The notes: a model not told the origin generated them from the sequence alone. A DNA stretch of 64,000 nucleotides from Cyanidioschyzon merolae (GCA_000091205.1 AP006499.2); one strand, 5' to 3'. Positions 21,229 to 49,600 are shown, counted from the stretch's first letter. Numbers and translations are program-made.

Positions 21229-21264
21229 CCGTAAAACTTTGCGACGGTTTGCCATGTACTGTCC

Positions 21265-26179: not shown

Positions 26180-26535
26180 ATATGCTGAAAAAGAAGAAAA
26201 AGAAACAAAGAGAACGACGAGTCAAGGGGCTTGCCCAACCGAACGACAACGAGACTGTGGTGGCATAGAGGGCACGAGTTCGGGGACTCCTTCCAATAGT
26301 GAGTTCACCCGGAGGCCCTGCACGCAGGGAGTTCGCGAAACGAGACTTCAACGCCATCATCAATGTCAAGAGATATGCGGCGCTGAGGACGACACCCGCA
26401 TAGCTGACGCGATCTGTCGTCGTGGGGCAGCTCCTCAGGCTCAAGATCTACAGGGAGATGCTGAAATCGATAGCATACGGCCGGTCGGAAAAAACTGGGA
26501 GGCGCCTGTGACTGGGTGTAAACATATACAATCTA
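26180..26535 (+). mobile_element. Fanzor-like 3' fragment, copy D (C-terminal remnant plus conserved 3' module only)
   Basis: ...KGLAQPNDNETVVA... then REFAKRDFNAIINVKRYAALRTTPA*. The 3' module follows: ...ctcaggctcaagatctacagggagatgctgaaatcgatagcatacggccgg...aaaaactgggaggcgcctgtgactgggtgtaaacatatacaat. Confidence 0.55.
26401..26535 (+). ncRNA. Candidate omega-RNA scaffold remnant (copy D)
   Basis: The conserved segment immediately 3' of the Fanzor-like stop, aligned to copies B and G. Confidence 0.25.
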
Positions 26536-30100: not shown

Positions 30101-30159
30101 TATGGAAACCCATACGCAGACGCCGCGCAGCATTTTTGACCGGCCTCCTGCCACCGATA
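30101..30159 (-). ncRNA. Candidate omega-RNA scaffold remnant (copy H)
   Basis: Contains the conserved ...aaaaa.gctg.g.ggcgtctg... segment 3' of the RuvC-III remnant. Confidence 0.2.
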
Positions 30160-30790
30160 TCAGTTTTTACCCCAGCACACTTTGAGCTTGAGAGTCTGGG
30201 CCACGAAGTTGAATCGCGTCGGATCCTTGGGTCTCGTCTTCTGCACCGCACACTGTCTGATATTAACAGCGACTTTAAGTCTCAGTTCATAAACTTAATG
30301 CGCGTATTGCCCCTGGCTGAACTCACCAGTGGACGGACTGCTAGAACTCGCGCCTTCTGTGCCACTACGGTCTCTTCAGTGTTCCGTCGGGCACACACTT
30401 TTTCCCGCCTATTTCCACTCTTCCTCTACGTCACATGCTCGGCTTCGCTCGATGCTAGGTGACAAGACAATTTTGTCTGTTTTTTCTTGAACCCGGCGAC
30501 ATCGGTACTCCAGGATCGTCGACTTGCTTTTCCATAACTTTCCTTTTCTAATTTTTGTCTGAAAAAGAACGCTTTTTGAACGCTTCTTTTATAGACTGCA
30601 AAAAACCAATCGAATACACTTGTTTGAGGTTTGGAACTCAAATGAATTGAAAGACTGTACTTTGCTTCGACCCCAACGCAAATACAACTTTTTCCGGTAG
30701 AACAACACGCTAATTGATCGGGATCATGTTTCCCTCCAACGGCGACATGCGCGTCGTGTCTCATGTCTGCCCGATCTCCCAGGTGCGCTC
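30101..30790 (-). mobile_element. Fanzor-like partial copy H (3' half: internal segment, C-terminal remnant, 3' module)
   Basis: The minus-strand translation reads ...ETVVAQKARVLAVRPLVSSARGNTRIKFMN* and ...LKVAVNIRQCAVQKTRPKDPTRFNFVAQTLKLKVC. The 3' module reads ...ggtcaaaaatgctgcgcggcgtctgcgtatgggtttccatac. Region 30490-30790 matches the internal segment of copies A, C and E. Confidence 0.55.
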
Positions 30791-31300: not shown

Positions 31301-31989
31301 ATTGTATTCGCTGAAAGGAAGCCGCAGGACTTGTGTAACGTATTCAAGAAGAAACTCACGATGCTTTTATTCGATCTATTTCCAGACACTACCGCTCCCG
31401 AGCCTAAATTTCTGGACAAGCGTCAATATACTGTCCTTCAATCCCCAAACTGCCTATTATCAAAGCCAGCGGGGCGACGAGGGGCTAAACGAGCCCAAGA
31501 GCCACCGACACCAGTTTTACGGCTGGGCACCTTGCTGAGCACATCTTCCAGCGTTGCCGTTGTGCCGAAAGGGTTTGACTTCGGGCCCGCACCGCTCAGC
31601 TTATCTTTCCACTGCCCCTGCAGGTCCCAAGGCTTTCTTTGCTTGGGCACACGATCAAGATAAGACTCAGAGCCGTCCCGAGGGGTCGCGCGGCCTCCGA
31701 TGCCGCCAGCCCGAGCTCTGGCAATTGTGCGCTCCGCAGAAGGCGAACGGGGCTTCGAGTTGCCCTGTCGCGCTAGAACGTCGCTCCATGCAAGCGGTTC
31801 ATTGTTCAAGAGATCTTGCAGATCTGCCGCACCTCTCACGAATACCTGGACAGCTATCTGCGAACAAGACACCAAACCGAGCGCTCCGAAACTCAAGGAA
31901 GCCATGTCACCACAGTCGAGTCCGAACAAGGGTAAGCGAACGGCGCCTCGCGAAGCGTGACCTGGGAGGTGCACTGCGAGATCTCGAAC

Positions 31990-32069
31990 GAATGTTGACA
32001 ACTTGACCACAGACGCCTCCTAGAATTTTTGGACCGGCCACCTACTACTGGTTCCAACTTATTCTTGCA
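31990..32069 (-). ncRNA. Candidate omega-RNA scaffold remnant (copy E)
   Basis: The reverse complement reads ...ccaaaaattctaggaggcgtctgtggtcaagttgtcaacatt, aligned to copy G ...aaaaagcctgggaggcgtcttctggtggatatgcatatac. Confidence 0.25.
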
Positions 32070-34450
32070 TCATTCCACCTTGAATGGTTCTCCCACAAAA
32101 TTCTCTCTTGTCATCTCTGGAAGTCTTTTTTCCATCACCACACATTTCCTGATATTGATTGCGGCGTTAAAGTCTCGGTTCACAAACTCCATCCGTTTCT
32201 TGCCATCATTGATTGTACTTACTAATGCAAGTCGCCCATGAACGTTCGCCCTCCTTTCCATTTGCTGTCCCGTCAGCGGTCCGTATTTTTCATATCCTCA
32301 GGGCTCCGCTGGCACTTTTTTCATCTCGAATCTCTGAAGTGTGCATCCCAGTTCATGGTGTATATACAATGCTCGGAACTCATCGATCGGTAGCGGAACG
32401 AAACGCCTTGCGCACTCCTTGTACGTTCTCGCCGGTGGAGCTGGTGTAGTCCCTTTTTGGGTCTTCCAGCGTCCTGCTCCGTTTGCCACTACGAGCCTCT
32501 GACGTTCATCCTCCTTCAAGCCACTCAACTGATTGAAAAAGTTGGCAAACGCCCGCTGCTTCCCACAATACAGGTTCATTCGCAGACGAGCCCACCGAGG
32601 CTTTGTATACTCTTTCCACAGCGCATCCCAATGAGCAACGCGACCTTCCATGAATTTCCGAAAAGCTTCAAAGTCCGCTCCTCGACTCGTCACCTTGCTC
32701 AAGGCCTCCAGGTGCTCTTTCAGTTATGCGTTCCACGTCTCGATTTTATTCCTTGCATTCATGATTCTGGAATCTCGATAGTTTCTTGCTCTCGAGAACT
32801 TTAAAATACTCATGCCTTTCTGAAGTAAGTTGCCGTGGATTCCATCTTCCGCACGCTTGGGTACTGCGGTGGTTATGATACTTGTGCCCCAGGGTCCGCG
32901 CCAACGACAAGGTCGTTATCCTGCACTTTCTGCGTCGCAGAATCCGCCTCCTTCTCATCTTCATGCTTCGTTACGGGCGAGGCCGAGCATGGAACAAGAC
33001 GATCCGCCTTCAGGCGCCGACGGTGTACACACATGGATACCCCATCGGTTTCGATCACCCCAGCGAATACCTTTTGTTCGCTGACTTTCAAACGTTTGAT
33101 TTCGAAGATATTTTTCTGGTACTTCTCCCGGTTGACACCGGTGACCTCCTTCCTGCTAACCTTGAACTCCGGACAGATCTCCCTCATGATGCCATGAAGG
33201 ACTGCGGAATCGATGGTCACGAAATGTGCCCTGATGTTGCACAACGGAACCACGTTGAAGCGCTTCTCCATTAGGAACGCTTCCGTCTCTCAGACGCTTC
33301 ATTGTTCCCGCGATTCAGCTCCATCTCCGCCTTGGGTTCGAGCTCTCGGTCTGGGTGCACGAAATAGCGCATAATTAGGGGATATCATCATTTTTTCACC
33401 TTTTTTCATATCTGATACCTTTTCTGCTGGGTTGACCGGCCTCAAGGGTGCACGGTGCTCATGAATAGTCGCACGGATTATAGAATCCTCATTCGTGCAC
33501 CTGCGTGATGTCTTCTTGTCGACGAACTCGATCTCCTGTTCAAGCTGCCGATCGTCCGTCATCCCATTGGTGATGGCCCATCTTTCCTTCGCGAGAGAGA
33601 CCCGGTTGGAGTGCAAACACGGCGCATATCATGAAGCCCTGGAGGTTCATGGTTAAACGGTCTCCAAGTTCGTTAGGTACCGCATGGCCCCGTGGGTGTA
33701 AATATTCCAGTCCCTCTGAATCGAGTACCGTAGAAGCTGTAGAAGGGATGCTTTTCGTGGAGGGCATGCACCCGCTCATTTCCCCTCGAGGTTTCCCCTG
33801 TGGCGAGCACCAGGTGGCGAAGAAGGGTCCTGCTGAAAAATTCTTCCGGAACCTCGGCTGTTTCGATGTCGGCCACGTCTTCATTCATCTCCTTCACCAA
33901 ATGCATTAGCCCTGACGAAGCCTTTATAACACTCATGGAGTAAGACGCAACACGGTTTCTGGGAGTCTCTTGCAACGCTTCCTTGGACGGATGCTTGATA
34001 TGTTTAAGATGGCAGGCTTTGACAACCATCACGTCGTTGTGCCGTCTTTCTTGCAGCCTTTGACGTCGGGCCTCCTTCATTTGCTTCTTTGTCTCGTCCT
34101 GTTCCTCTTCGCACTGGACTGTGTGTTCGTTTGTATCCGCCAGCTGACGACACTGGGCCTCCAGGAGCCTCCACTTTCACTCGCATAACTTTCCTTTTTA
34201 ATTTTTTTTCTGAAAAAGAACGCACCTTGAATGCTTCAGGTATAAACAGCGAAAAATCACTTGAATACACTTACTTGAGGGTTGGAATACGATTGAACTG
34301 AAAAGCATACTTTGCTACGACTTCAATGCAAATACACCGCGTGCAGCAGAACAACACGCTCTTGATACCGATCGCGTTTCCGTTCAAGAGCAGCATGCGC
34401 GAAGTGTCTCGTGTAACTGGCTGATGTCTCTGGTGCACGTGTCCAGCCCC
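31990..34450 (-). pseudogene. Longest Fanzor(TnpB)-like copy (E, about 2.4 kb), frameshifted. It has a RuvC-I-like GxDxG motif, a candidate RuvC-II, and RuvC-III D-x-NAA-x-NI.
   Basis: Minus-strand ORF pieces run in order. 33271..32873 ends ...[15 protein letters not shown] (RuvC-I-like). 32702..32298 reads ...VPLPIDEFRALYIHHELGCTLQRFEMKK... (candidate RuvC-II Glu and degenerate zinc-finger region). 32261..32070 reads ...GKKRMEFVNRDFNAAINIRKCVVMEKRLPEMTRENFVGEPFKVE* (RuvC-III). The 3' module is at 31990-32069. Region 34160-34450 matches the internal segment of copies A, C and H. The short copies lack the central roughly 1.9 kb present here. Confidence 0.55.
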
Positions 34451-35419
34451 CTACAGAAAAAAAACAGAGACTCACGACTAACTGGCAACGATATGACAAT
34501 TTCTTTCCCCCCTCTAAGGTAAACGTTAAAAGGCGAAAAGGTTTCCATATTGTCGAAAGTTTATTTTATAGGCGAAACGTCCCGCGAGCCGGACGTGTCT
34601 GCCAGACCAGTGCTTCATGCGACCCCAGTGGAAGGTGCTTGCTGGAAACCCGAGCAACTCGTGCGAAATGCAGTTTATTATGAGACTAGGAGCGGGTATG
34701 CTGCGTCAGGGCGTCGGCCTGGTCGCAGTTATCTCCTTACATATCGCTTGGCGCTGCCGCAGGCACTAGGTCTGTCTGCAGAGCTTGCAGGCTCCCAGAA
34801 AGATTATGTACTCTGGCTCTGTATCGGGAAAAGCGCTCCTCGATTCGATGCCCTCTGTGGTACGGTAACGCGGTTTTGTCTCCGCGATCCATCTGTTCCA
34901 GCGGTTTAGGCGCCACTACGGGTGCTCGTGGTAGGTACTCGCGCACGCTAGAACGTAAAAACCGACCAGTATGTCCGAGATGAAGTGTAAGAGATGGATC
35001 TTAGTCGGCCGGGGCGGGAAGGGCAGCATGATGAGCGCTTCCTCGAAAGCCACTACCCATCCATCCCGAAATCTGGGATCCATGGTAAATGTAAACGTTT
35101 GTCATCGAAAAAAAACAGATCGAAATTAATATGCAATTCACCGTTTAGATCGAAGACGAATTGTCTCTAGTATGTATATTCTTTATTGAAGAGTGCAATG
35201 AGGACTGCATGGTTCCTTCAGGTCAGTCATAGCAGGTCACTCAGGTGGTTGACGAACACTGAAAGAGACCAACAGATGCGCTACGCGCCGAAAACTGATA
35301 TTCTTCAGGCCTGCTTGCGGTCAATGATAGAAAATGGTCCGTTGATAATGCTACCGAAGAGCAAAAGCTATGATAATAGACGTCAAGTAGGTGTCTCTGT
35401 TTCTCACTAGTTTGTTCAT

Positions 35420-35713
35420 GTGGTCCAGCATACAGGGGGATACAGTCGCAAGAAAGTCCTAGTTCACGAACGGTCATCTTCCAATGAAATCGCAACGACA
35501 GCGTTCCTGGAGCTCAGCGATCGGGACAGAGTACAGGAACGTCGGGTTGTTTCAGTTGATGAGATTTCCTTTCGACAAAACGGTCGGAGCATGTATAGGC
35601 ATTTGTGGGGAAAAGAGCCTGTTATATATACGATCGAACTCGAAAATAACTCGGACCTCATTATCTGTTCTAGCTGCAGTCGATTCACTCTCCGGCCTCA
35701 GTCCCGCTCGTAG
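35420..35713 (+). pseudogene. Tc1/mariner-like (DDE_3) transposase remnant (copy B)
   Basis: ...GGYSRKKVLVHERSSSNEIATTAFLELSDRDRVQERRVVSVDEISFRQNGRSMYRHLWGKEP... fits the Tc1 pattern, with FSDE-like VDEISF and downstream Y.W..G. It is truncated, with no second Asp or Glu block. Confidence 0.55.
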
Positions 35714-35874
35714 AGAAGGCTCATCCAACAGCACCAACCATTCCGTCGAATCATTGAAGACTTTTCCCTCACGTCTCGCGACGTTTTTCCACTGAAAAAC
35801 GTGGTATTTCAGCATTACCGTCGCGGTCGAGTTTTTGCCGATTCTGTCGGGGTAGAGTTGGTTTTCATTTCTCC

Positions 35875-36342
35875 GTGAGCTCCGTGATTCGGTCCCATCG
35901 AAGGAGAGTTTTCGATCGAAAAAAGGTAATGATCTCTCCACTGGGCGAATTGATGAAGCGTCCAGCACACGATGACACCGCGGACAATGTCGTCTCTCTT
36001 CTGCAAGTCTTCCTCTTTCCGGGAAGGTCCTCATTTAGGCACATTCAAAAGTGCGCCCATTCGCAGAAAATGAGGGATGAACTGAGGTGTATATTTCAGA
36101 AGGTCGAGATTGAGAGAAGGCAGCGGAGCGCTTCGGTGATAGGAAAGCACAGAGGGCTGACAGAGCACCACATGACGCTGAGGGTGCGAATTCGAGGACT
36201 ACTTGCACTGGTGAGTTCAACCAGCAGCAAAAAACGCATGAAGTTCGTGAATGGTGAGTTTAACACTGAGAAAAATACAAGGAGATGTGCATTGTTGAAG
36301 ACGAGACGCGAGGAGCTGACGCGAGCGAACTTTATGGGGTAG
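35875..36342 (+). pseudogene. TnpB/Fanzor-like C-terminal remnant (copy B)
   Basis: The ORF ends ...SSKKRMKFVNGEFNTEKNTRRCALLKTRREELTRANFMG*. This is the degenerate D-x-NAA-x-NI context (NGEFNTEKN), conserved with the other copies. Confidence 0.5.
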
Positions 36343-36443
36343 CCTCTCGGGTTCGAGGTGTACAAGGAGAAGCTGAAGCCGATCGCAGGGTGCCGGCCAA
36401 ATACGGTTTGAAGGCGCCTGCCGTTGGGCGAATATACATACTC
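36343..36443 (+). ncRNA. Candidate omega-RNA scaffold remnant (copy B)
   Basis: cctctcgggttcgaggtgtacaaggagaagctgaagccgatcgcagggtgccggcc...gaaggcgcctgccgttgggcgaatatacatac aligns with copies D and G. Confidence 0.25.
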
Positions 36444-36484
36444 AAAAGTCGTGGAATGTTGTTCGTTATACTGGAAAGAATACT

Positions 36485-37747
36485 CGTAGTCAAACCATGA
36501 GGGCTCACCAACGCATGGGTACTTTTAACAACATCAAGCGTTGTTTTGGGACGGCCTCTTCCACTCCTTGCCGCTGGATTTCGTTACCTCACCGCCACCA
36601 AGATGAGTCGTGACGCCCGCTACAAAGCGCTCCTAAAATAACCGATACCACTATGCAGCGCATTCATAAACCACTGCGCGCTTCTCCTTTTCTTACGAAC
36701 AGCACGCTCAAATACCCCATTCATCTGGCTCTCCGTCTAGCGGTTCCATGGCAGCTCGTGGGCGCACCAGATCGCGCCCCTATATCGCGACGACGAACAC
36801 CCGACGTCGGCCGTTCACGAGTGTTCTCAGACACTCATGCCGAAAGCCCAACGGGGTTCTCACGTCAAATACTCCTCTCCGCTCTCATCGCACGCCCCCC
36901 TCTCTTCGCGCCCGTCGACGAGCCGGCACTCAACAGCGACACCGTATGTCTCTCCAGCTGCAGGCTCGCTACGGCTCCCGCGTCTCCCGTTTCCATGGGA
37001 AAGGGGCCTTGGACGCGGGCGCGCGCCGTCGCAGCGGCCGCCTCCAGCAGAGTTTGCGTCACCGCTCTGCACAGCGGGAGCGTAGACGGATCGAACCAGC
37101 TGGGCTGGATATCTCCAGCGCGGATCTCCCTCTTGGTGCCCCGCCTCATCGTGGTCAGCATTGCGTTGCACGGATTCTCCCGCGGACTGGACAGCGTGCG
37201 CGTGCGCATGCGCCCGCCCAGAATACGCGCCGTGCGGATCGCCCCGAGCGAGCCCGGGGTCTGTCGGTACCGCACGAGACGCCGAGACGGAACGAGGGCG
37301 TCGAGGCGACCCTTCTGCATCCGCCAACGACATGTATCGGGCGACGAGGGAGGCCCTCGGTGGATGAGCTTTGTCGGACATGTTGTCACACCTTACCACA
37401 GCCGATCATGGCAGCTACGTTGTGCGTCTCGAGGCTGTACACAGCGAAGATGGCAATGGCAAGCAAAGCATATATCGTGACGACCGCCTCTGGATGAACT
37501 GTTTCAAGAACACCTGGTGGCAGCGAAATCGGGACTTGAACACTGCCATCAGCATCCTTCAACAGTCGACAACGGACTCCGAGGGAGCGGAGCGTCCAGC
37601 ACGCTGACTGGCGGACATAAGAAAGGAAAACGGAGCATTTGCAGAAAGAGTCTGCGAGGGCTGGTGTGCATGACAGTACGATGAAATCCAAACCTGTGCG
37701 AGTACGCCCGTGTCAGGATGCCTGTTCCATTTCATCCCGACATGCGT
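36485..37747 (+). repeat. Left copy of a 1.27 kb direct repeat (same GC-rich repeat family as the inverted repeat at 8833 and 17278, diverged)
   Basis: Near-identical to 42863-44147. The ORF pair 36653..37480 and 43030..43878 is identical except for a 21-nt indel (...GGPRWMSF... versus ...GGPHAPWSGPRWRSF...). It starts cgtagtcaaaccatg and ends ...catcccgacatgcgtg. Blocks such as gtcaccgct.tgcac..gggagcg.agac.gatcga......ctgggc are shared with the inverted-repeat unit. Confidence 0.85.
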
Positions 37748-38066
37748 GAACGTACATGCACTGAACCCGTTACGTAGCGGCGACGTCGTATGAGTGATTG
37801 CCGTTTGCAATCACGCGCCGATCGCGAGACGGCCGCGCGTCACAGCATAGGGTGCCAGATTTCAGGGGCGTCTGCTGCGGAGCCGTATCCCACGGCCTGC
37901 CTGCAGGCTCGGACACGTCCCAGATTGGCAACTGATCCCGGACACGTGGTGCGATCTGGACGCGTTTCACATGGACAGCAGCTGGAGCGCTCGCGCGTCG
38001 ATGTGGAACACCCGGCGACAAGAGCCAGCCTGAAATTCACACCCGGCTTTAGAACTCGCTGTACTT

Positions 38067-39902
38067 ATGGTTGCGCTGGAACTTCCAGCAGCCATGTCTA
38101 AGGTGGAAGTGGTAGGTCTGGTGGAGTCCAACACGGGACGACAGGCAGTCCTTGTTTCCGGTGAGCAGGAAGCTGGGCAACCAGACAGGAACTGGTTTAC
38201 AAGTCAGACGGCCGCTGATCTTTGCACCCAGAGCAGGCCTCGTACTCGCCAGATGGGTCCGGTTTACTGTCCAATTCTTGGCAGAGAGCCCACCACCAAA
38301 AACCGGGCACGCTCAGATCAAAATTCGCTCTATGTTCGGGAAGCTTGCGAAGGGACCGTGTACGCTTCCAATCGCTACGAAACACGAACTTCTGAGCTCT
38401 CGCGGGAAGCGCCAAGAGACGAAGCTGGCGACGGTAGAGCGCAGGTTCAAACGACGCCCACGCTGATTTCCGCTGAAAAAAGACTCGAAGAAACCAACAG
38501 CCTTCCCTGTGTTCTCGAAGGTTCCTCTTCACACATGCCACGCGTTCTGAATAGCACCGTCGAAGTGCCGATATGCAAGTCACGGAATATCTCGGCGGCA
38601 GATGAGCAGCCTGAGGTTCTGCGTGAGCGGTCACTGGAGAAAAATGTGAAGCATTGGTCTTCTATTCATTTCCTTCTATCAGCTGCACTTCGTCCCCAGT
38701 ACTCGACAACCGTCAAGGAGGACGATTGCTCGAGACGAGCAAGGCGACGTGTTCATACTCGATCGCGTTCGGCAGGATATGGCGCTCTTCGCGTAGTCCC
38801 GGAGAAGTATCTGCTGGATCGAACGCATGCTTCGGTGCTGGGGGCTTCAAATCAGCGGGTTCTTCGATGGCTCGCACCACACACTGGGGAGAGCGGTGTC
38901 CAGTTATCATCATCATCATCATCAGCAGCAGCAGCAGCAGCGCCCCGGAGCGTTACTGGCACGGGAGCACTGGTATCCAGACCACGCGAGGGCGGATCCG
39001 AGCATGCGGCGCCCAAATGTTCGAGTACGTCATTCACTGCGCGAAAGCGTGGCCGCAACATCTCCTGCACGCTGAACAGCAACGTGAACAAATGCTCTTC
39101 CAGGGACACCGACTCAGACGGGTCGAGTGCAGTCACGGAGATGATCCCCGATACAGAGCACATCCTGATCCATCAGGCTGGCGTCAGTTCACTTGCGGTA
39201 GAGGTAGATGGTGAAATCGATCCATGGCTCATTATCGCCACGCTGCCGCCCCGAGAGTATGCGGCTCCCGCGCCTCAGATCCGCCTACCGAAGCCGGATC
39301 CCGCCGTGCGAGATCGCCCGACACTCGTTTTGGATCTGGATGAGACGCTTGTACACTGCTCGACAGAGTTTATGTCTGATGCTGACTTTAATTTCTCCGT
39401 GCACTTTGAAGGAACGAATTACACAGTATATGTGAAACGGAGACCTTTTTTACAGGCGCTGCTCCAGTACGCTGCTCGCTATTTTGAAGTGGTGGTCTTT
39501 ACCGCCTCGCAGAAAGCGTACGCAGATCGTCTTTTGAACATTTTAGATCCTGATCACACACTAATCCACCACCGGCTCTTTAGAGATGCGTGCATCAATG
39601 TTGCGGGTAACTATCTGAAAGATTTGACCGTGCTGAGTCGTGACCTGCGACGTACCATCATTGTGGATAACAGCCCCCAAGCTTTCGGCTATCATTTGGG
39701 GAACGGCGTTCCGATTCTAACCTGGACCGATGACGAAAATGACCGCGAATTGATCCAGCTGATTCATCTGTTAGAGGATATGCGCGACGAATTGGAACAC
39801 GGTAGCGGCGATGTTCGTTTTCTTGTCGAGCGGCGTTTCCGCAATAAGAATCGCGTTGAGTTCTACAGAGCGTTTCTTGCCTCCATTGATTCTGCACAAT
39901 GA
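38067..39902 (+). CDS. CTD-like (FCP1/SCP/NIF family) HAD phosphatase with a long disordered N-terminus
   Basis: ...RPTLVLDLDETLVHCS... is the DxDxT/V catalytic motif. ...FEGTNYTVYVKRRPFLQALLQYAARYFEVVVFTASQKAYADRLLNILDP...VLSRDLRRTIIVDNSPQAF... is the NIF/FCP1 homology domain. Confidence 0.8.
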   Translation: MVALELPAAMSKVEVVGLVESNTGRQAVLVSGEQEAGQPDRNWFTSQTAADLCTQSRPRTRQMGPVYCPILGREPTTKNRARSDQNSLYVREACEGTVYASNRYETRTSELSREAPRDEAGDGRAQVQTTPTLISAEKRLEETNSLPCVLEGSSSHMPRVLNSTVEVPICKSRNISAADEQPEVLRERSLEKNVKHWSSIHFLLSAALRPQYSTTVKEDDCSRRARRRVHTRSRSAGYGALRVVPEKYLLDRTHASVLGASNQRVLRWLAPHTGESGVQLSSSSSSAAAAAAPRSVTGTGALVSRPREGGSEHAAPKCSSTSFTARKRGRNISCTLNSNVNKCSSRDTDSDGSSAVTEMIPDTEHILIHQAGVSSLAVEVDGEIDPWLIIATLPPREYAAPAPQIRLPKPDPAVRDRPTLVLDLDETLVHCSTEFMSDADFNFSVHFEGTNYTVYVKRRPFLQALLQYAARYFEVVVFTASQKAYADRLLNILDPDHTLIHHRLFRDACINVAGNYLKDLTVLSRDLRRTIIVDNSPQAFGYHLGNGVPILTWTDDENDRELIQLIHLLEDMRDELEHGSGDVRFLVERRFRNKNRVEFYRAFLASIDSAQ

Positions 39903-41066
39903 CAACTTGCCACATGAGTATGGAGTATGTTTAGATGGGAAGCATGTTACCTGCCATTGACCACCAGGTTGCGCCTCTCCTGGCGAACAGAAACGATGAC
40001 AGCATTCCTCTGTGCAATGACGCGTCGCGAGATCGAGCGCTGTAATGCGGACCGCGACGCCCACGGAAGCGCCGAGATCATTGTCCGGTGAAACAATTTC
40101 AGTTCGGGCGCTTGGTACTGATCGTCGGGACAGCCGCTGCTCGCGACGAGATTGTATCGCCTGGTGCCCTTTGAGCCTTTGGAGAGCACACGATCGCCGC
40201 GAGTTTCCTACTCTGTACATATAAACGGCTTTTCCCGCTGTGCCAAGTTATACCAGACGCTCTGACGCACAGTTTCCTTTCGAATGAAGTTTTAGAGCTC
40301 TGGAGTTTTACTAGCTGCGAGCATCGAGTCCAGGGAGCGGCTTGGTCTATCAAGGAACGGGATTGCAAGTGATTCTCCTAAAGGAGTGCAGCTTAAACAC
40401 GTATGCATGGAGCCCAGTCCAAGACAGCCTTGGGCAAACTTTACTTTGTGAGAACCCACGAAAACTGTCGGTGATATGCAAGCTCTTATTCTGATGATCT
40501 AACGTTCCCAAGCGCAGATGCTCGCTTGCGAACTCCGTGAGGGAGACGCACCTAAGCTGCGCACACTGAGTACCTCCAAAGAGTTGGAACACTCTCAGGA
40601 TCGGGCTGGGCCGAGCGATATTCATCGAAATTTTCGATTCTCATGCATTTTCCCCATGAGCCTCCGAGTCGATAGGCGTCCGAAGCAGAAACCTTGTCCG
40701 TGCAAATCGATTTGCTGCGCTGAAGTTTCTGTCCGCTGCTGTCCGGCAAAGCTGGTACCGCATTCCGTATGAGTACGCAACGCAAGGCTCTGTTCGCGAA
40801 GCGAACGTCATTGGTCAGAGCGTGTCAACGAGTCCAGATCCGCTGCAAATTGCATGCTTGTCTGTATGCGTGGATGCGTGCGCGCATTAGTGCTTGTATG
40901 TCGATGGAAATCCGGGAGTCAGTCAATCAGTAAGTCAGTCAATCAGCATGCACAGCTGGCCGTCTGCTTGCGGGCATACCTATACGCATATTTACATACA
41001 TGTGTGCGTGCGAGCATGCATGTCTGTCTGCTTGCGGTCGATTGCAGCCTTTCATGCGCCAAAACA

Positions 41067-42368
41067 TCAAATCCAGTCTCCGTGACGAATCTTTTCGGGC
41101 AAATATACTTCGGTTAGGTACTGGAAGCCGAAATTGCTGAGAGCCTGAATCTCAGCCTTCTCTTTCCGCTTCACCATCAGGGAGAGCTCTCGATGCCAGG
41201 CTGGATTCTTTTTGATAAAATCTTCTTCCAGCATGTCTTTTCCGGTCTTAAGATCATTTTCTGTCATCGCAAGGCGGCACTGCTCCGGGATACCGTAGCG
41301 ATCAAGGTCGGTTGGCCGAATCCCCAACCACTTTATATCGGGCGTTGCTAGATTTGCAGAATCGTAGCTCATGCCCTTACTGCCACTCATGTAAACCGAA
41401 AGAATTTTCAGTCCGTACGGATCGCTGTCTACTAGACCAAGGATTGGTAAATGCAATTCCCGCTTCAGTCTTCGCAGAAACAAACGTGTTCCGACGTCCG
41501 GCTGACCTTTTGCAGTGACAATAATGCATTTCACGCGATTATAGAAGCGATCTTCCGCTAAGCGCATAAATGCTGCATCCTTCTCGACCAGGAGGATAAA
41601 TTCGGCGTCCGATGTTATATTCGTGATTCGATCGGTGTACGGAGGTATTGCTTTCCCGCCAACGCCCATACGCGTGCAGTCGATCAAATCCCCGTCTTCC
41701 TGGAAAGTTACACGGCCAACGACGATGCCTTTCTCTGACGCAACGACGTTTAGAGAGTTTCGAGTACAGCCGATCAGGCATGCAACATCGTTGAGCACAT
41801 CGTCTGACTCGGTTTGCTGCCGAAACAATTTCACATCTGTGTAGAACAAGTCGCGTTTTGTTGTGTGTATCCGTCGGGTGCAAAGCTCGTGCACAAGCTG
41901 TAGCACTCTCGTCATGATAGTGGTTTTGCGAACCGAGGCGACGGAGGCGAAGTTGCGAATCGCGACCCCGTCTTTGAGCACGATCCGTTCCAGCTCCTCG
42001 ACGTACTCTTGGTTGCCCGCGGATCTCCGTGGCACCTTGTAGGAGAGACCACGACCCTCCAGTATAGACTTTGCTGCGGAGAGAATGACTCGTTCGAGTT
42101 CGGCAAGTACCTGGTCGCAATCGAGCTCGCGCACCTCTATGCGTGCTGCGCTCGAGGCATCGGAACTCTGCTGCAAAATAAACCGTTGTTTTGCAGCCTC
42201 TCTGGACTCTATTTCCCTTTTCAACTCCCGGACTCTGTTCAGAAAAGACTCAGCGTCAACAGCCGCCGTTCCGCTAGAGACAGCACCCGATTCTGCCGCC
42301 TGTTTCCACTTCCGAGAGGCTGTGCTCAGCCGCGGCTCGGTCGCGGTTTTCTTTCTCTTCGCAACCAT
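41067..42368 (-). CDS. SPO11: SPO11 / DNA topoisomerase VI subunit A
   Basis: ...[16 protein letters not shown]... is the catalytic-Tyr region (5Y-CAP). The Toprim domain reads ...[17 protein letters not shown]...[17 protein letters not shown]...[29 protein letters not shown]... I cannot tell a meiotic SPO11 from a TOP6A-type paralog by eye. Confidence 0.85.
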
Positions 42369-42862
42369 AAGATGAGGTGCTCGGGCCCCAGTCCGTCCAA
42401 AAAGCTTTCAAGCAGGAACGTATGCAGCACAAGCGGTACGACGAAGCAGCCTGCCTTTCGATCTTGAGCGCTGATGCGTACCGTTCGGCGAAAACTCGCG
42501 CCCGCCACGGGATCGGCAGAGGCGCAGTGTGCACCGAACACTCGCGTTCGCGCCAAGCTTGCATGCGGCGTGCGGATGTCAGCGCATCGCCTTCTGAGGC
42601 GAAGTACGACACGCGTATTCGGTTCTCTTCAGCACCTGGACCGGTTTCAGCGCCGCGGATCAAACGCAATCAGGATCGAAAGTCACAGAAAAGGCCTCGA
42701 GGGCCCGTATGGACCATGAAATGTCCGAACCTAAGGCACGATAACTGACGTGAACGCCAGAGCCCGACACAGCAGGAAGAAAAAATCCAGCTTTGAGCTA
42801 CTCCTTCTGATCCTGCATTTCCATTTTTCTCGAAATGTTTTAGATGAGCAGTGCCGAGGTTC

Positions 42863-44147
42863 GTAGTCAAACCATGTGGGCTCACCAACGCATGGGTACT
42901 TTTAACAACATCAAGCGTTGTTTTGGGACGGCCTCTTCCACTCCTTGCCGCTGGATTTCGTTACCTCACCGCCACCAAGATGAGTCGTGACGCCCGCTAC
43001 AAAGCGCTCCTAAAATAACCGATACCACTATGCAGCGCATTCATAAACCACTGCGCGCTTCTCCTTTTCTTACGAACAGCACGCTCAAATACCCCATTCA
43101 TCTGGCTCTCCGTCTAGCGGTTCCATGGCAGCTCGTGGGCGCACCAGATCGCGCCCCTATATCGCGACGACGAACACCCGACGTCGGCCGTTCACGAGTG
43201 TTCTCAGACACTCATGCCGAAAGCCCAACGGGGTTCTCACGTCAAATACTCCTCTCCGCTCTCATCGCACGCCCCCCTCTCTTCGCGCCCGTCGACGAGC
43301 CGGCACTCAACAGCGACACCGTATGTCTCTCCAGCTGCAGGCTCGCTACGGCTCCCGCGTCTCCCGTTTCCATGGGAAAGGGGCCTTGGACGCGGGCGCG
43401 CGCCGTCGCAGCGGCCGCCTCCAGCAGAGTTTGCGTCACCGCTCTGCACAGCGGGAGCGTAGACGGATCGAACCAGCTGGGCTGGATATCTCCAGCGCGG
43501 ATCTCCCTCTTGGTGCCCCGCCTCATCGTGGTCAGCATTGCGTTGCACGGATTCTCCCGCGGACTGGACAGCGTGCGCGTGCGCATGCGCCCGCCCAGAA
43601 TACGCGCCGTGCGGATCGCCCCGAGCGAGCCCGGGGTCTGTCGGTACCGCACGAGACGCCGAGACGGAACGAGGGCGTCGAGGCGACCCTTCTGCATCCG
43701 CCAACGACATGTATCGGGCGACGAGGGAGGCCCTCACGCGCCATGGAGCGGCCCTCGGTGGAGGAGCTTTGTCGGACATGTTGTCACACCTTACCACAGC
43801 CGATCATGGCAGCTACGTTGTGCGTCTCGAGGCTGTACACAGCGAAGATGGCAATGGCAAGCAAAGCATATATCGTGACGACCGCCTCTGGATGAAATGT
43901 TTCAAGAACACCTGGTGGCAGCGAAATCGGGACTTGAACACTGCCATCAGCATCCTTCAACAGTCGACAACGGACTCCGAGGGAGCGGAGCGTCCAGCAC
44001 GCTGACTGGCGGACATAAGAAAGGAAAACGGAGCATTTGCAGAAAGAGTCTGCGAGGGCTGGTGTGCATGACAGTACGATGAAATCCAAACCTGTGCGAG
44101 TACGCCCGTGTCAGGATGCCTGTTCCATTTCATCCCGACATGCGTGT
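42863..44147 (+). repeat. Right copy of the 1.27 kb direct repeat
   Basis: See 36485-37747. The spacing between the two copies is 6378 bp. Confidence 0.85.
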
Positions 44148-44490: not shown

Positions 44491-45024
44491 TTTCTCAATA
44501 CGCTCACGCTGAAAGCAAGGACACAGAGGAAAACACAAGACCTTACTCCAGGACGCGTCCCCCGCCAAAAAAATACGGCCTCGCCAGTCACCGGGCTCTT
44601 TTTCAGCGGTTCGCCAGCCCAGTTTCGCCTTGGCGCTCCCCGCAGAGCAGTATCGGAGCTACAATCCCCAGCGACATCGCTAGCACGTGTCCCGGCGCTG
44701 GGATGCGAATCCCGCCAATTGGCGGCTGCACCGAGTCGTGTGCTGATCGCGCAGCGTGATGCACTCAGCGCCGCCGTCGTCGCCGGCGCCGGCGCCGGCG
44801 CCGCCGCATAAGGGCAACCGGACAATCCGCCAGCCACGACACGGCAGCGGCCGGACGTCGGGTGCCGCCAAAGCCTTAGAACGTACACCGTTTCTGCTCG
44901 CGTAACTGAAGGGCCTGGACGCCACGCTCAAAGGGTGTGCGTTGTCGATCTCGTGCTTCTTTCCATAATACGGACGAAACGTTGAAAAACAAAGTTTTTG
45001 TAGTTGAGTGGAGACCCCGAAAAC

Positions 45025-45534
45025 ATGATCGTGTGGAAAGACGTTTTCACTAAAGACGAACTGCTCTCTGATGGAATGAAAAACGTTCGGGAGCTGGAGA
45101 ACGGCCTTCTCCTGGCTTGCGATTCGTACAATGTGACGCTAGGCGGAGGCGACTATGGAATCGCGAACAACGACGAAGAAGCTATGGGGGCAGGCGGCGA
45201 CACTGCGGGCGCAGAGTCGGTGAACGTGGTGGTGGACGCTTTCAAGTTGCAGAACATTCAGCTGCCACGGAAGGATTTTCAGGTGTACATCAAGAAGTAT
45301 TCAAAACGGTTGAAGGAATACCTTGAGAACGAGAATCCATCTAGAGTGGCGGCGTTCATGGAAGGAATGAAGGAATGGGTACCGAAGATGCTCAAGGAGT
45401 TCGACGAGTACGAGTTTTATATGGGCCCTTCCTGCGATCCCGACGCATTACTGGTTCTCGCGAAATACGAAGGCGAAAGTCACTACCCGACTTTTCTGTA
45501 TCTCAAGGATGGGCTTGCTGAAGAGAAGTTTTAG
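45025..45534 (+). CDS. TPT1: Translationally controlled tumour protein (TCTP/fortilin)
   Basis: MIVWKDVFTKDELLSDGMKNV... is the TCTP N-terminus (MIIYKD..). ...FKLQNIQLPRKDFQVYIKKYSKRLKEYL...FYMGPSCDPDALLVLAKYEGESHYPTFLYLKDGLAEEKF is the TCTP C-terminal signature. The start is taken at the Met of MIVWKD. Confidence 0.9.
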   Translation: MIVWKDVFTKDELLSDGMKNVRELENGLLLACDSYNVTLGGGDYGIANNDEEAMGAGGDTAGAESVNVVVDAFKLQNIQLPRKDFQVYIKKYSKRLKEYLENENPSRVAAFMEGMKEWVPKMLKEFDEYEFYMGPSCDPDALLVLAKYEGESHYPTFLYLKDGLAEEKF

Positions 45535-45629
45535 AACAGAACAGAAACACTCATTTCAGTTTAATCTGCAGGTTAAATACGACCAATGGATACCTGGGGA
45601 TTTAAGACCGCTCGTGACCAACAGTGCGG

Positions 45630-46622
45630 TCATGCGAGGTTGCCTTCGGGCTCTGGCTCTTGTTCACGATGCTCGGCAAACTCATGAGGATCAAATTCTG
45701 GCGGGGGCGATGCACCCCCGGCAACAGAGTGATCAACGCTATCCGAGAGGGGGCTCGCATCCGCCGAAAACCGTGACGGCGTCTTTGACGTCGGGCTCTG
45801 CATACGCTGACTTGTGCGCTCACCCGAGGTGTTCACCTGAGAGCTTTCAGTCCAATCAATCTTTTGACTGGTGAGGCTTCCATGTTCAGTCATAATATCT
45901 TGCAGTTCTCTGTCTTGTTCAATAAGCGGCTCGAATTTCAATGCTGCCAGTTGGTTAGAGATATAAACAATGAGGGCCCTTGAGAACACAACATCCTTGT
46001 TGCGTTCGAGCATTTCAACACCAAGCTGGAGAGAGTTGCAGGCGTCCTCTGCAGACTGTCTGGATTCAAGGAGTTTCAGACGGTTGCGTTCCAAACGCGC
46101 GTCCGAATCCTGCTTTTGCGCTGCTTCGAGCTTCTCGACTTTGGTTAAATAATAGTTGACCTCTCTCAGGCGCTCCTCATACACGTGTGCTCGTTTTCTC
46201 ATCTCTTTGCACTTTTCGAGGAACTCGTCAACTTGCGCTAAGACGCTCTGGACCCCCTCCGGTGTCGGTTTACTCTCGTTCTGGCGGTAACCCGTTGGCG
46301 GTGGGCGAAGAAGACCAATCTTACACATGTGTTGTTCCAGTGCCGAGACAACGTTCGCAGTATCTGTTGCGGTGCTGTAAAATGGGTGCGTAGCTTCGAA
46401 CATAGTCTGTATTGAGCCGGTGGCATCACTCATGTTCGCCAGCAGGCTCTTCCAGGCGTTCTCGTTCGCAGCTAGCACGGCTCGTACTCGTTGGGCCCGA
46501 CGCTCCAGGCTGTCCAGTACGTCCATCGCAGCCTCGTACCGAGTTTCGGGCGCACTCGCCGGCCCCCTGCGAAGTACAGCGTCTTTCGAGCTCTTTAAGC
46601 TTAACTTAACGCGGTGAAGCAT
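45630..46622 (-). CDS. Hypothetical coiled-coil protein (possibly a BAR-like helical domain) with a Ser/Pro-rich C-terminus
   Basis: Clean 330-aa ORF with a long helical region (...EKCKEMRKRAHVYEERLREVNYYLTKVEKLEAAQKQDSDARLERNRLKLLESRQSAEDACNSLQLGVEMLERNKD...). The family is not recognised. Confidence 0.4.
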   Translation of the reverse strand: MLHRVKLSLKSSKDAVLRRGPASAPETRYEAAMDVLDSLERRAQRVRAVLAANENAWKSLLANMSDATGSIQTMFEATHPFYSTATDTANVVSALEQHMCKIGLLRPPPTGYRQNESKPTPEGVQSVLAQVDEFLEKCKEMRKRAHVYEERLREVNYYLTKVEKLEAAQKQDSDARLERNRLKLLESRQSAEDACNSLQLGVEMLERNKDVVFSRALIVYISNQLAALKFEPLIEQDRELQDIMTEHGSLTSQKIDWTESSQVNTSGERTSQRMQSPTSKTPSRFSADASPLSDSVDHSVAGGASPPPEFDPHEFAEHREQEPEPEGNLA

Positions 46623-49600
46623 GGTTGCGGTCGCTGAGAGGCAGAAGCTTATAATAGCGATGGTTCATTTGCGCCGATCATGAATACATCACGTACAAGT
46701 GCCGTTTTGTCCAGTATTCCCTGGATCATTCCCGAAGGCTGTAACGCAGGACACGTGGCTGCACCGCGGCATCTCGTTCCGGAACGTGCGTAGACGGACG
46801 CCGCGGCCCCTGGGTGTCCGATCATCCGGTGGCGTTCGGCGATGCACCGATGCTGCGGAAACCACGAGTTGATCAGCGAGCGGCTCGAATGCCGAGGTGC
46901 CTCGTCAACGCGCGACGCCAACATCCCCCAAAATACGATATTTCGCGATCGCGACCTGTGGAAACGCCGTTCATGCAGGGGGTTGTCGGCGATGCCGCGC
47001 CAGGCGCAGGCGCACGTGTGGCGCTGCTCAACCAGCCCGAGTCTTTGCGTAGCCAAGGCAAAACATGAAACATGAAAATCACGTTGGGGGCGCTCGACCC
47101 TGAGTCTGGATTTCTGAGCAGCGGATGATACCAGGGCGTGCGCCACTACATCCATGTCAGAATAAAATTGAAGAGGTCCACTTAGCCGACATGGGTGCAA
47201 ACATCAGAATCATTTCAGAGTAAAACAGAATAGGTTCATCGCGCAAGCTTGGATCCGCACTCGCTATGGTTACGGCTCTTCCTAATGGCATCAACGCGTG
47301 CCTTTAGAGGCTTTTTCTATGACAGCTTCCCTTTACGCTCTTGTATCTCGGGCTCTATACAGGCCGACCTCCGCTTTCCGTCGAGCTCTGTTGCCAGCAG
47401 TCGGAGGATATTTATGGCAACATATTCGTTTGGATTCCGCCGTTTCCGGCTGCAGCAGACGCATTTCACGCACAGAGTGAAGATGAGATCTACGTTTCTC
47501 TTGCCATTTTCATACTCTTTGCACAAGGCCTCGATACGGTATTCGTAACCTTCAGAATTGCCACTGTTAACGTGTTTCAGTGTGTCCAACACAACTTCTC
47601 CTTCGAGGGCTAGCCTATGACGTATGAACGCTTACTTCATCGCTCGGTGCATGCCCTTGACAGGTACATAAGGTTCACCGCCCCGCTCCGATGTTCTCCT
47701 CGGTTTTCGCGCCCGGTACAGTTCCTTACGATCGCGGACCTCTTGTGAGCGATTCTCGCGGTGAGGGCACTGCACGCTGCTCGTGCAAGCCCAAACTGTT
47801 GTGTTTCAAACATGGATTGTGGAACACGATATTGTCCATGATCAAACAAGTATCGAAAGGAAAATTTAGGCTGGAGGGGAATTCGAGCTGTGTCGGTCCC
47901 TCTACGCTCGCTTCGTGCACAGCGGTGACGCATTCTCTAGTCAAAGCAATCACTGGAATGACTCAAGTCCGAGTCCAAGACGATTCTTCGTGTAAGAAGA
48001 ACAGACGGCAGCCGATGGGAGCGTATTCCTTGGTAGGTATCATGCTGCTGCCGTCGAATAGTGTTTCGTCGATGGACACCAAGAGCGGAGGGTTTGTCTT
48101 TCGAACGAAGTCCAGGATTTGATGTGAAAGGTTCGAAAAACAAGTGGCATGAGCTTTTTAACGACTGGTCAAGGGAGGCTGCCGCGTTTTTTCCTTCCTC
48201 AATCTAGCTACCCGAATTGATACCCCCACGAGTCGCGTTGAAAAGTGACCATCGAAACCTTGAAGAATGCGTTATTTGAGGACGTTACGCATATGGAAAT
48301 GAGCCGACTGGAGGGATGGACGTATGAATCGGATCATGACATCGGAATTTTACGAATACATTGTCGATGGGATCGCGAATCATTTCGATTCACGTGGCGG
48401 AACGAACTCAAGCGACAGAGAGTTTGAGGAGCCACTCCAAAATGACCGCCGAAAGTCCTGAAACTTCGAATGAATCCTCAAGTCCTTGCTGCCGCACTTC
48501 GAATGTCGAGGCTGTACTTCAGAAAACCATTCGAAAGAATCGAAATTATCTGAAGAGAGCGAGAAGCTGAGTGTTGCAATCAATTCTGAAACAGGTTTAG
48601 GAATCTTCTCTTCGGTGCTGCGAACGAATATTCCTTATCTGGAGCCTGTTGTGACGAGCGACTTTCCAGCATCCAAGAATGACGCTTGTCTGTTGGTGTC
48701 GCTGCAATAAATCTAGCTTTATGTTCATTCATCCTAGTTCACGAAGAAACATATAATTGAATTGAGGATCCTTTCCGATCAATGGGCCACAAGTTATCTT
48801 CGTGATGAATCTTTCTTCTAGAGGCCTCTGGCAAGATTCACCTGGAGACTCGGATATTTTGAACGGGAACGTCTCGCAATGACCATCTCAATTGCCACCA
48901 CTCAACTGCCCAACTCTTGCTCCGCGCCACGCTTTGGTGCCAGGACAGAATCCACGGCCCCCCGGGGCATACCATCAGATACTACCTATTCGACAACGCT
49001 TTCGTTGGGTAGGCTCGATGGATTAAAGCTGATGTTTTCGAGTGCGCGGAGCATGGCGGTTCGTAGGGCACAATCCTCATCTCAGCTGTGGATACAGCTA
49101 GCACCGCTTATACCATATATTTACGTGTACAATGTTCACCTCCGGAACAGCAGCATGATCGTTCCAGCGATACCTCGAGCGACGCATCTTCAGGGAGCAT
49201 TGCTTATGGCACTTGACGCGCCTCCGGGGTCACGCTGCACAGACAGGACGAATTTGCGATGTTTTTGCGGCAGTCAGCTCGAGACTTGCAATCATTTTTT
49301 GAATGATAGAGAGGAACTTCACCGTGAAATAGCGAGCTCGAGCTTACGACTATCCATCGCGTTGAAAGCCGATAGACATCTGATGTGCGAGCTCGTGCAC
49401 TAGATTCGCTGAAGGCAATTTTTTCCAGGAAACAATCATGTATCCAACCAGGATTGCTCTCGTGTGCGATGAGTTCATGCGACAGGGAAATGGATATCAC
49501 ACCGATCAGCGCACCTGAATTTTCCAAGAGCCTCAGAGGATTCTTCCCGTCGAAGCTGGCTGGTTGATGTCTCCACCGATATGAGTTTACCACCGGATGC

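Follow-up and report, generated by a model that had tools for sequence, protein, structure and literature searches.

Two nearly identical copies of a 1.27 kb sequence lie in direct orientation in the nuclear genome of Cyanidioschyzon merolae strain 10D, on either side of two host genes, one of which encodes SPO11. What kind of sequence is this repeat, why are its two copies so alike, and does their position next to SPO11 have any significance? We addressed these questions in a stretch of 64,000 nucleotides of 10D DNA (AP006499.2), hereafter the window.

The repeat pair and the genes it encloses

Copy A occupies positions 36484-37748 (1265 nt, + strand) and the portion of copy B in common with it positions 42861-44146 (1286 nt, + strand), with a start-to-start distance of 6377 nt and an interior of 5112 nt (37749-42860). 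Self-BLAST and MAFFT alignments confirm the near-identical direct repeat with a 21-nt indel reported in a preliminary description of this DNA, whose coordinates were off by only 1-2 nt. In the MAFFT alignment, the copies differ by three substitutions (A36500/T42877, T37365/G43763 and C37499/A43897) and a single 21-nt gap, positions 43729-43749 (+ strand) of B being missing from A between 37351 and 37352. As the gap is bounded by a 7-nt direct repeat (GGCCCTC), it is a slippage deletion in A; B still has the 21 nt, as do the two copies in the metagenome strains. Chance cannot account for a 1.27 kb match at 99.8% identity.

Near-identical repeats of 1.3 kb are a classic source of misassembly, and a duplication artefact in the reference genome had been raised as a possible explanation. 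However, all four junctions (left flank/A, A/interior, interior/B and B/right flank) were recovered in independently assembled hot-spring metagenome contigs from several samples, at ~99.4% identity, which shows that both copies are real in nature. Given that the copies also differ at three sites and an indel, and that the reference genome was finished to completion (PMC1955436), such an artefact can be practically discounted.

As previously proposed, two host genes are enclosed by the repeats. Pfam searches identified a NIF/FCP1-like (CTD small phosphatase-like) gene at 38067-39902 (+ strand; BAM82022; NIF domain PF03031, E=1.5e-53) and a SPO11/DNA topoisomerase VI subunit A gene at 41067-42368 (- strand; BAM82023; PF21180 and PF04406). 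Comparison with orthologs, also advocated in the preliminary description, proved informative: in the sister genus Cyanidiococcus, SPO11 and NIF are adjacent in the same arrangement, and the locus carries neither a homolog of the repeat nor self-repeats. The NIF-SPO11 pair is ancestral and older than the repeats that flank it. Repeat expansion is indeed specific to C. merolae, where repeats make up 12.7% of the genome, versus 0.59% in Cyanidiococcus (PMC9812998). The interior is kept in every strain sampled, presumably because its loss is selected against, and no allele with the interior deleted or duplicated was seen.

A dispersed non-coding repeat family

Sensitive BLAST searches and an nhmmer profile assign A and B to a dispersed family of ~1.39 kb (family E), with six copies in the window whose ends coincide. 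The other four comprise E1 (8824-10210, - strand) and E2 (17260-18649, + strand), which are full-length, 99.0% identical, and form the arms of an inverted pair around a RAD51 paralog and GGT; E3 (24194-25288, + strand), which is degenerate, interrupted (24194-24386 and 24684-25288) and 3'-truncated; and E6 (47149-48606, - strand), a solitary copy that is full-length at 47207-48606, inverted relative to B and ~58% identical to it, with its terminal 54 nt duplicated in tandem at 47149-47202. Five more diverged copies were detected outside the window by a full HMMER search. Solo copies of the repeat, for which a search had been suggested, exist in the window (E6 and E3), and diverged members exist elsewhere. 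Different E lineages are 57-59% identical. The family includes at least three diverged copies in unrelated contexts with common boundaries, and its copies occupy 7 of the 14 intergenic intervals. On the 1394-position family model, B starts at position 23 and E1, E2 and E6 at positions 1-4, A matches positions 103-1393, and all five copies end at 1393-1394. To the left of the A/B boundary, B keeps ~80 nt of family homology (42780-42860, + strand), which are homologous to E2 and E6; A, a 5'-truncated member according to the family model, lacks these and in all the first ~80-100 nt of the element. Of the two, B is thus more complete. Both belong to an ordinary family of dispersed repeats that is non-coding and TE-like.

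Codon-usage log-odds in six frames gave no coding signal in E, substitutions between members showed no 3-periodicity by codon phase, the family consensus restored no ORF, and no E ORF of at least 80 aa had a match in Pfam. A word-indexed homology search with a 282-aa E ORF returned only itself, and a full HMMER search with a 186-aa minus-strand E ORF returned only itself and weak matches, which are translations of other E copies. Neither an RNA family (Rfam at gathering thresholds) nor a tRNA (ARAGORN) was detected. Searches for TSDs around E copies yielded flank matches of 4-6 nt at best, no better than shuffles, and local alignment of 5' ends with reverse-complemented 3' ends detected no TIR that exceeded shuffles (P 0.05-0.95). 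The hairpins at the ends show no conservation and are not significant (z-scores of -1.5 to +1), and the ends of E (...GGAATG or ...CATGCGTG) carry no poly(A) or 3' simple repeat. Finally, a conserved 24-base composite motif of the family had no match in viral contigs or in bacterial or archaeal genomes.

These features set E apart from the main classes of transposable elements. Like a pair of LTRs, A and B are two direct, near-identical repeats of ~1.3 kb located a few kb apart, but they start with TCGTAG and end with GCGTG instead of having TG...CA termini, their outer flanks do not exhibit a common short duplication, and the interior contains no gag/pol but ancestral host genes, which are syntenic and repeat-free in Cyanidiococcus; moreover, E also occurs singly and in inverted pairs. 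We thus agree with the preliminary description that they are not LTRs. The common 3' end and variable 5' truncation of E are reminiscent of non-LTR retroposons or SINE-like elements, but the 3' tail and variable-length TSDs of such elements are missing. Helitrons (5'-TC, 3'-CTRR, subterminal 3' hairpin, insertion between A and T) are rejected, as E does not end in CTRR and has no conserved or significant hairpin, and so are Tc1/mariner-type transposons and MITEs, given the lack of TSDs and of TIRs above shuffles. A composite transposon is rejected as well, as E contains no ORF and the enclosed gene pair is ancestral at the locus instead of foreign cargo. Repbase contains unclassified repeats of C. 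merolae, including CMe-1A (the 'WSV repeat', which bears a Fanzor1 relic) and TE-N2_CMe, that resemble E in being species-specific, dispersed, highly diverged and intergenic, without TIRs or determinable TSDs (PMC3627910, PMC1955436). However, going by the published description (PMC3627910), CMe-1A is about 3 kb long and carries a truncated TnpB/Fanzor-like ORF, whereas E is ~1.39 kb long, with no TnpB/Fanzor-like or other ORF relic and no protein homolog.

Another dispersed family, F2, probably represents a DDE_3 (IS630/Tc1-like) transposase gene that has decayed. One F2 relic (35116-36464, + strand) ends 20 nt before copy A, and further copies are located at 15672-17149, 55073-56521 and 62182-63604, in addition to partial copies elsewhere. 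F2 and E do not form a single composite element of ~3 kb matching the published 'WSV repeat', as the orientation of F2 relative to E is opposite at the two places where they abut. A Fanzor/TnpB relic suspected in ORFs at 32873-34080 (- strand) received no support from Pfam or PDB sequence searches.

Origin and upkeep of the pair

We consider it reasonably likely that A and B are an ordinary E pair, homogenized by conversion, which flanks old host genes by chance. Under this scenario, family E would have spread within the C. merolae lineage, with copies settling in the intergenic DNA that flanks the pre-existing NIF-SPO11 pair on both sides. As A is a 5'-truncated copy of B's lineage, one copy may have been copied locally from the other, or both from a common parent, and intrachromosomal gene conversion (concerted evolution) would keep them almost identical.

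Both 10D copies carry A265 and T1104 (and also C333, C365 and A1256), whereas the 5-6 metagenome sequences all carry G265 and C1104, a comparison that has no outgroup to polarize these alleles and in which the both-copies-one-allele pattern is firm only for 10D, as metagenome assemblers may have collapsed A and B into one consensus. Copy A of 10D exhibits a private 21-nt deletion and a private T37365; in fact, every difference between A and B in 10D is limited to this strain, except position 17, which is polymorphic. The divergence between A and B is 0.24%, versus 0.4-0.5% between strains in neutral DNA, that is, three differences observed for about six expected, which is not significant alone (Poisson P about 0.18). 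In addition, paired E copies have a GC content of 56-60% (~60% for A and B), versus 45-49% in solitary E6, E3 and all F2 relics, and lineage-specific W>S:S>W counts are 125:53 for B, 107:70 for E2 and 62:98 for E6. [quoted passage not shown] Closeness alone is no guarantee of homogenization, as B and E6 are 3 kb apart yet 58% identical.

A less probable reading, which nevertheless deserves serious consideration, is that A arose from B through a single local copy-and-paste event or repair-templated duplication shortly before the sampled strains diverged, in which case the copies would be alike because they are young, without ongoing conversion. A indeed corresponds to B minus part of its 5' end, both having a common 3' end, and the private or polymorphic nature of the 10D differences implies that A and B were nearly the same in sequence at the time of the strain split. 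The number of differences is statistically compatible with copying just before that split, and such an event would also fit the lack of homogenization between neighbours B and E6. However, at two sites or more (265 and 1104), both copies are fixed for one base in 10D and for another in all other strains, which in the absence of conversion requires parallel mutation or systematic assembly collapse. Moreover, an old element copied late should be AT-decayed like E6, E3 and F2 (~48% GC), yet A and B have ~60% GC, and neither a TSD nor any other insertion footprint is observed around A. That A and B are instead independent insertions of an active high-copy mobile element, adjacent to SPO11 by chance, appears very improbable to us. 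Such an element could be a non-autonomous retroposon mobilized by the non-LTR elements of C. merolae, a species known to carry non-LTR retroelements with intact RT as well as TIR-less unclassified TEs (PMC1955436, PMC3627910), and the dispersion of E, its common 3' end, its variable 5' truncation and its lack of TIRs are in agreement with this possibility. Of the ubiquitous element with independent insertions considered in the preliminary description, the dispersed family with six copies in the window stands, but the independent insertions do not: A and B match each other at 99.8% but other members at ~58%, and in contigs from metagenomes carrying this genome, an exact 28-mer scan found the A/B type only in the two known contexts, with no other close copy in homology searches. 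A and B thus form a local paralogous pair. Furthermore, the two near-identical pairs of the window each have their copies close together, 6-9 kb apart, a pattern hardly expected from random genome-wide insertion, and E shows neither a poly(A) or simple-repeat 3' tail nor a TSD.

Recombination potential and local gene order

A and B are located on the same chromosome and exceed the ~1 kb and ~97% identity thresholds that define NAHR-competent low-copy repeat pairs. They resemble low-copy or TE-derived NAHR repeats evolving in concert in being longer than 1 kb, more than 99% identical and direct, with unique genes in between, and possibly in exchanging sequence between the copies; likewise, inverted pairs of the same families flank inverted segments. 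They differ in being far smaller (1.3 kb repeats, 5 kb interior) and in belonging to a 16.5 Mb haploid algal genome, with no deletion or duplication allele observed. Given efficient homologous recombination in this organism, the pair can serve as a substrate through which the 5.1 kb interior is deleted by pop-out or duplicated, and may be viewed as a concrete natural example of such a substrate around a meiotic gene. The earlier proposal that direct repeats predispose to unequal exchange is correct. In strain 10D, experiments have shown that a marker placed between direct repeats can be popped out through intrachromosomal homologous recombination (PMC13353863). In engineered marker recycling in 10D and Cyanidiococcus (PMC13353863), two direct repeats similarly flank a few kb and recombination excises the interior; there, however, the interior is counter-selected, whereas between A and B it consists of host genes, the loss of which is presumably selected against.

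We give hardly any credence to the idea that the repeats bound a functional cassette, in which the SPO11-phosphatase segment undergoes programmed or regulated excision, circularization or amplification. Direct repeats are a natural substrate for such events, and one metagenome contig (Ga0207433_10030865, or L003) runs from interior through the repeat into interior again, its ends overlapping by 131 nt, as expected of a circle or tandem array. But this path is also a legal walk through a collapsed repeat in the assembly graph, other contigs either stop at the repeat or follow the linear order, the repeats are generic E copies found in many intergenic regions, and Cyanidiococcus keeps the gene pair without them. 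More generally, the preliminary description had placed two recombination genes in repeat-bracketed cassettes, and the inverted repeat around the RAD51 paralog is indeed built from the same family (E1/E2, 99% identical). As E copies lie in half of the intergenic intervals, GGT and the phosphatase gene are bracketed too, and the NIF-SPO11 pair is ancestrally repeat-free, the association with recombination genes is best regarded as coincidental. The repeat would have no dedicated role in SPO11 or recombination-gene biology, of which it says nothing special; the intergenic DNA of C. merolae is filled with many lineage-specific repeat copies, and A and B are one pair of these.

Inverted pairs are associated with inversions. 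The three two-gene blocks located between inverted same-family repeat pairs are exactly the three blocks that are inverted relative to Cyanidiococcus and a third lineage, which speaks for the ability of such repeats to recombine. This is reminiscent of intramolecular replicative transposition (Tn3/IS26-type), as the local, near-identical inverted copies E1 and E2 bracket a segment inverted relative to its relatives and have no flanking TSDs. However, neither a transposase nor a split TSD is detectable at E, the same arrangement is explained by plain recombination between inverted copies that already existed, and this type of transposition yields no direct pairs such as A/B. It is rather unlikely, though conceivable, that E is an undescribed non-coding mobile element devoid of TIRs and TSDs, which would be copied replicatively at the DNA level, preferentially to nearby sites: inverted daughters (E1/E2, possibly B/E6) would arise with inversion of the genes between them, direct daughters (A/B) would create excisable or amplifiable segments, and in some cells or strains the SPO11-phosphatase segment might take the form of a circle or tandem array, which L003 hints at.

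As the small gene-order differences from Cyanidiococcus in this region all coincide with inverted repeat pairs, repeat expansion has probably been reshaping local gene order, a picture of modest usefulness in a genetic model with a known sexual cycle. The directly flanked NIF-SPO11 block is collinear with Cyanidiococcus.

A near-identical direct repeat around the phosphatase and SPO11 genes

Self-BLAST of the window aligned 36484-37748 (copy A) with 42861-44146 (copy B) in direct orientation, with three mismatches and one gap. The pair reported in the preliminary description is thus real, its coordinates being off by only 1-2 nt. The alignment gives three substitutions (A36500/T42877, T37365/G43763, and C37499/A43897) and a 21-nt indel, as had been announced, and the spacing of 6378 bp is close to the start-to-start distances on either side of the indel (6377 and 6398). 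The 21 nt in question, at 43729-43749 of B, are missing from A. As they are bounded by a 7-nt direct repeat (GGCCCTC), we read the indel as a slippage deletion. A and B do enclose the two host genes described, in an interior of 5112 nt (37749-42860). These genes are convergent and encode a phosphatase of the NIF/FCP1 type (PF03031, E=1.5e-53) and SPO11/TopoVI-A (PF21180 and PF04406), identical to BAM82022 and BAM82023, respectively, on the 1.23 Mb chromosome of Cyanidioschyzon merolae 10D.

The 10D genome was finished to completion (PMC1955436), and independent contigs from hot-spring metagenomes carry the locus at ~99.4% identity. L001 and L012 cover the interior and both copies, L011 contains B and part of A, and the junction between the left flank and A is seen in L002 and L010. 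L004 and L005 begin within B, at a depth of 140-184 nt, and stop 123-141 nt into A, ends within a repeat being the usual break of short-read assemblers. As all four junctions are present in independent contigs, both copies exist in nature, and an assembly duplication artefact, which the preliminary description had raised against its own observation, is virtually excluded as the source of the pair. One further contig (L003, Ga0207433_10030865), corresponding to window 36484-42860, reads in its entirety interior, repeat, and interior start, and its ends overlap by 131 nt with a single SNP. It could reflect a SPO11-phosphatase unit that is circular or tandemly duplicated, but is equally well explained as a legal walk through a collapsed repeat.

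Two minor features lie close to the pair. In the stretch from A to the start codon of the phosphatase gene, a non-coding block of ~57 nt (37927-37983) containing CCACGTG shows ~90% identity to Cyanidiococcus, while nearby coding DNA is only 70-77% identical. This block has no Rfam match and could function in cis as a conserved regulatory element, or else encode a small RNA. In addition, a GCGCCG hexamer array (6.7 copies, 44768-44807) is located between B and TCTP.

Two dispersed repeat families

Sensitive BLAST against the window revealed ~58% similarity over about 1.2 kb between B and 47256-48449 (opposite strand), as well as similarity of B to 24707-25199 and to 8828-10202 and 17271-18645, the arms of a 99%-identical inverted repeat. 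Using multiple alignment, all-against-all sensitive BLAST, and an nhmmer profile, we defined a ~1.39 kb family, termed E. E1 (8824-10210, minus strand), E2 (17260-18649, plus), and E6 (47207-48606, minus) are full length, and E3 (24194-24386 plus 24684-25288, plus) is degenerate. Within family bounds, A (36482-37747, plus) starts at model position 103 and B (42780-44146, plus) at model position 23. Hence, the inverted-repeat structure invoked alongside the direct repeat exists (E1/E2) but is not separate from it, both being the same element. Left of the point where A/B identity stops, a further ~80 nt of B are still homologous to E2 and E6 (nhmmer), unlike the left flank of A. As family homology beyond this point is found only in B, B is the fuller of the two copies, and A belongs to the same lineage but is truncated at its 5' end. 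A common terminal motif (...TTCCATTyyATyCyGrmATG) closes E copies; it is also included in a tandem duplicate of the last 54 nt of E6, at 47149-47202. A HMMER search with the repeat ORF returned itself and five weak matches, which are translations of further E copies. These are 26-46% identical to window copies at the amino-acid level and must therefore be located elsewhere in such genomes. Family E is thus dispersed beyond the window.

Host-like codon usage was found in no frame of E, substitutions among family members are spread evenly with no codon-phase bias, and the family consensus does not restore a long ORF. No E ORF matches Pfam, and a 282-aa E ORF is its own sole match among 5.8 billion proteins. 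Long ORFs in E are by-products of its 60% GC content. Searches of the repeat for an Rfam family or a tRNA were negative. A and B lack TG...CA termini, in agreement with the earlier view that they are not LTR-like. No target site duplication around E copies scored above shuffled flanks, and we detected no terminal inverted repeats, conserved terminal hairpin, poly(A), or Helitron ends. As coding, RNA, and TE-hallmark tests are all negative, E is an unclassified, non-coding, TE-like interspersed repeat. By their published description, CMe-1A (the Fanzor1-bearing 'WSV repeat') and TE-N2_CMe of C. merolae similarly have neither terminal inverted repeats nor determinable target site duplications (PMC3627910, PMC1955436).

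The relic adjoining A (35116-36464) belongs to a second family, F2, with other copies at 15672-17149, 55073-56521, and 62182-63604 (~63-72% identity between copies) and fragments at 25955-26561, 30051-30656, and 31990-32356. A 255-aa metagenomic relative (P0025), which is a longer version of the F2 ORF, shows a DN...PPY...ID-type motif and a weak match to DDE_3 (IS630/Tc1-like) transposases (E=0.007). F2 ORF fragments also match DDE_3 weakly. Judging from these sequence similarities, F2 copies are probably decayed class II transposon relics. At both contact points F2 is in opposite orientation relative to E, and the two families are therefore independent.

In a gene-free, repeat-rich stretch, a string of short ORFs at 32873-34270 (minus strand; e.g., ...VVGADPG...) resembled the remains of a TnpB/Fanzor-type gene, which would fit the CMe-1A 'WSV repeat' as published, but Pfam and PDB sequence searches did not support this reading. 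Two small, unannotated-looking ORFs at 31442-31900 (minus strand) and 27867-28054 (about 155 aa and 138 aa), which also lie within repeat-rich sequence, show 73-75% nucleotide identity to called Cyanidiococcus genes and have no Pfam domain.

Probable homogenization of the pair and fate of the interior

The 10D differences between A and B at repeat positions 903 and 1037, together with the deletion, occur in no other strain, and position 17 is polymorphic: B carries T in 10D, L003, L004, and L005, but A in L001. The two 10D copies share an allele at positions 265 and 1104, where all five or six metagenome sequences have a different one. At positions 333, 365, and 1256, the 10D copies agree with each other and the metagenome strains vary among themselves. 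Moreover, paralog divergence in 10D (0.24%) is lower than strain divergence in neighbouring intergenic DNA and repeats (0.4-0.5%). Such a distribution suggests that the copies evolve in concert through gene conversion, with three reservations: short-read assemblers may have merged A and B of the metagenomes into one, changes are unpolarised (no outgroup), and three observed differences versus about six expected are not significant alone.

Base composition provides a second, independent hint of conversion. GC content is 59.5-59.8% in A/B and 56% in E1/E2, which have a near-identical partner, versus 45-49% in solitary E6, E3, and all F2 relics. Three-taxon parsimony yields 125 W>S vs 53 S>W changes in the B lineage, 107:70 in E2, and 62:98 in E6, and GC enrichment is greatest mid-element. 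Enrichment of the paired copies is possibly the expected product of GC-biased gene conversion in C. merolae; alternatively, these copies could derive from a GC-rich, more recently active source lineage.

Gene synteny with the window is found in Cyanidiococcus yangmingshanensis (L007/L008/L021), a related lineage (L009), and a third lineage (L022), where the region contains no E or F2 homolog nor any self-repeat, which fits the repeat expansion described for C. merolae (12.7% of its genome vs 0.59%; PMC9812998). As the SPO11 and phosphatase genes are adjacent in the same arrangement in these repeat-free relatives, the interior is an ancestral pair around which repeats have lodged, not a cargo.

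We regard it as fairly probable that A and B arose locally as paralogs, that the dispersed repeat to which they belong is an ordinary, lineage-specific one, and that gene conversion keeps them alike. As such, they would be latently open to unequal exchange but would have nothing specific to do with SPO11 or recombination genes, whose placement in repeat-bracketed cassettes is best taken as coincidence. The preliminary observation is confirmed, and its interpretation supported only in part. A young duplication with no conversion would also yield near-identical copies, and we hold it to be rather unlikely. Two independent insertions of an active element are highly unlikely, because an exact 28-mer scan of metagenome contigs recovered no context other than the two already known, and because each of the young pairs is local. 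Even less credence can be given to a functional excision or amplification cassette.

Pop-out deletion or duplication are the expected products of a direct pair. Intrachromosomal recombination between direct repeats is used for marker excision in 10D itself, C. merolae has meiosis, and 10D and MS1 are an inversion and a translocation apart (PMC13353863). Repeats of this kind are indeed substrates for unequal exchange, as proposed. None of the contigs shows an allele in which the 5.1 kb interior is deleted or duplicated. We infer selection against interior loss, most plausibly via the phosphatase gene.

Microinversions between inverted repeats

Synteny is shared along ~52 kb, interrupted only by three inversions, each of which involves two neighbouring genes: the RAD51 paralog and GGT, between E1(-) and E2(+) (within window 7403-19398); a 138-aa gene and an RRM gene (27867-28923), between the inverted F2 fragments 25955-26561 and 30051-30656; and TCTP and a 330-aa gene (45022-46776), between B(+) and E6(-). 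All three blocks are inverted relative to both Cyanidiococcus and the third Cyanidiales lineage (L021, L022). Two-sided repeats occur at 4 of the 12 possible adjacent two-gene blocks; three of these four have same-family repeats in inverted orientation, and they coincide exactly with the blocks that are inverted (chance 1/220), while the fourth, with the direct pair A/B, is collinear with the relatives. The inversions are not strictly polarised, as L022 groups with Cyanidiococcus (GGT 76% vs 67-69%). Among the lineages compared, the repeats are present in C. merolae only, and E/F2 repeats evidently take part in recombination.

Finally, three metagenome contigs (L018-L020; JGI 3300050369, 3300052695, and 3300050371) show, at ~1-7400, PolE-Lon-DFP joined via an E copy directly to WD40-Fumble. 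Their counterparts are window 1-2067 and 17286-23354, and PolE-Lon-DFP, here reversed, is what immediately precedes the window on its left side. In the connecting E copy, E1-like and E2-like alleles alternate as a mosaic, and its first 15 nt relative to E1 and E2 are missing. These contigs correspond either to a chimeric walk through a collapsed repeat or to an inversion polymorphism involving a third E copy, near-identical to the others and situated left of the window.
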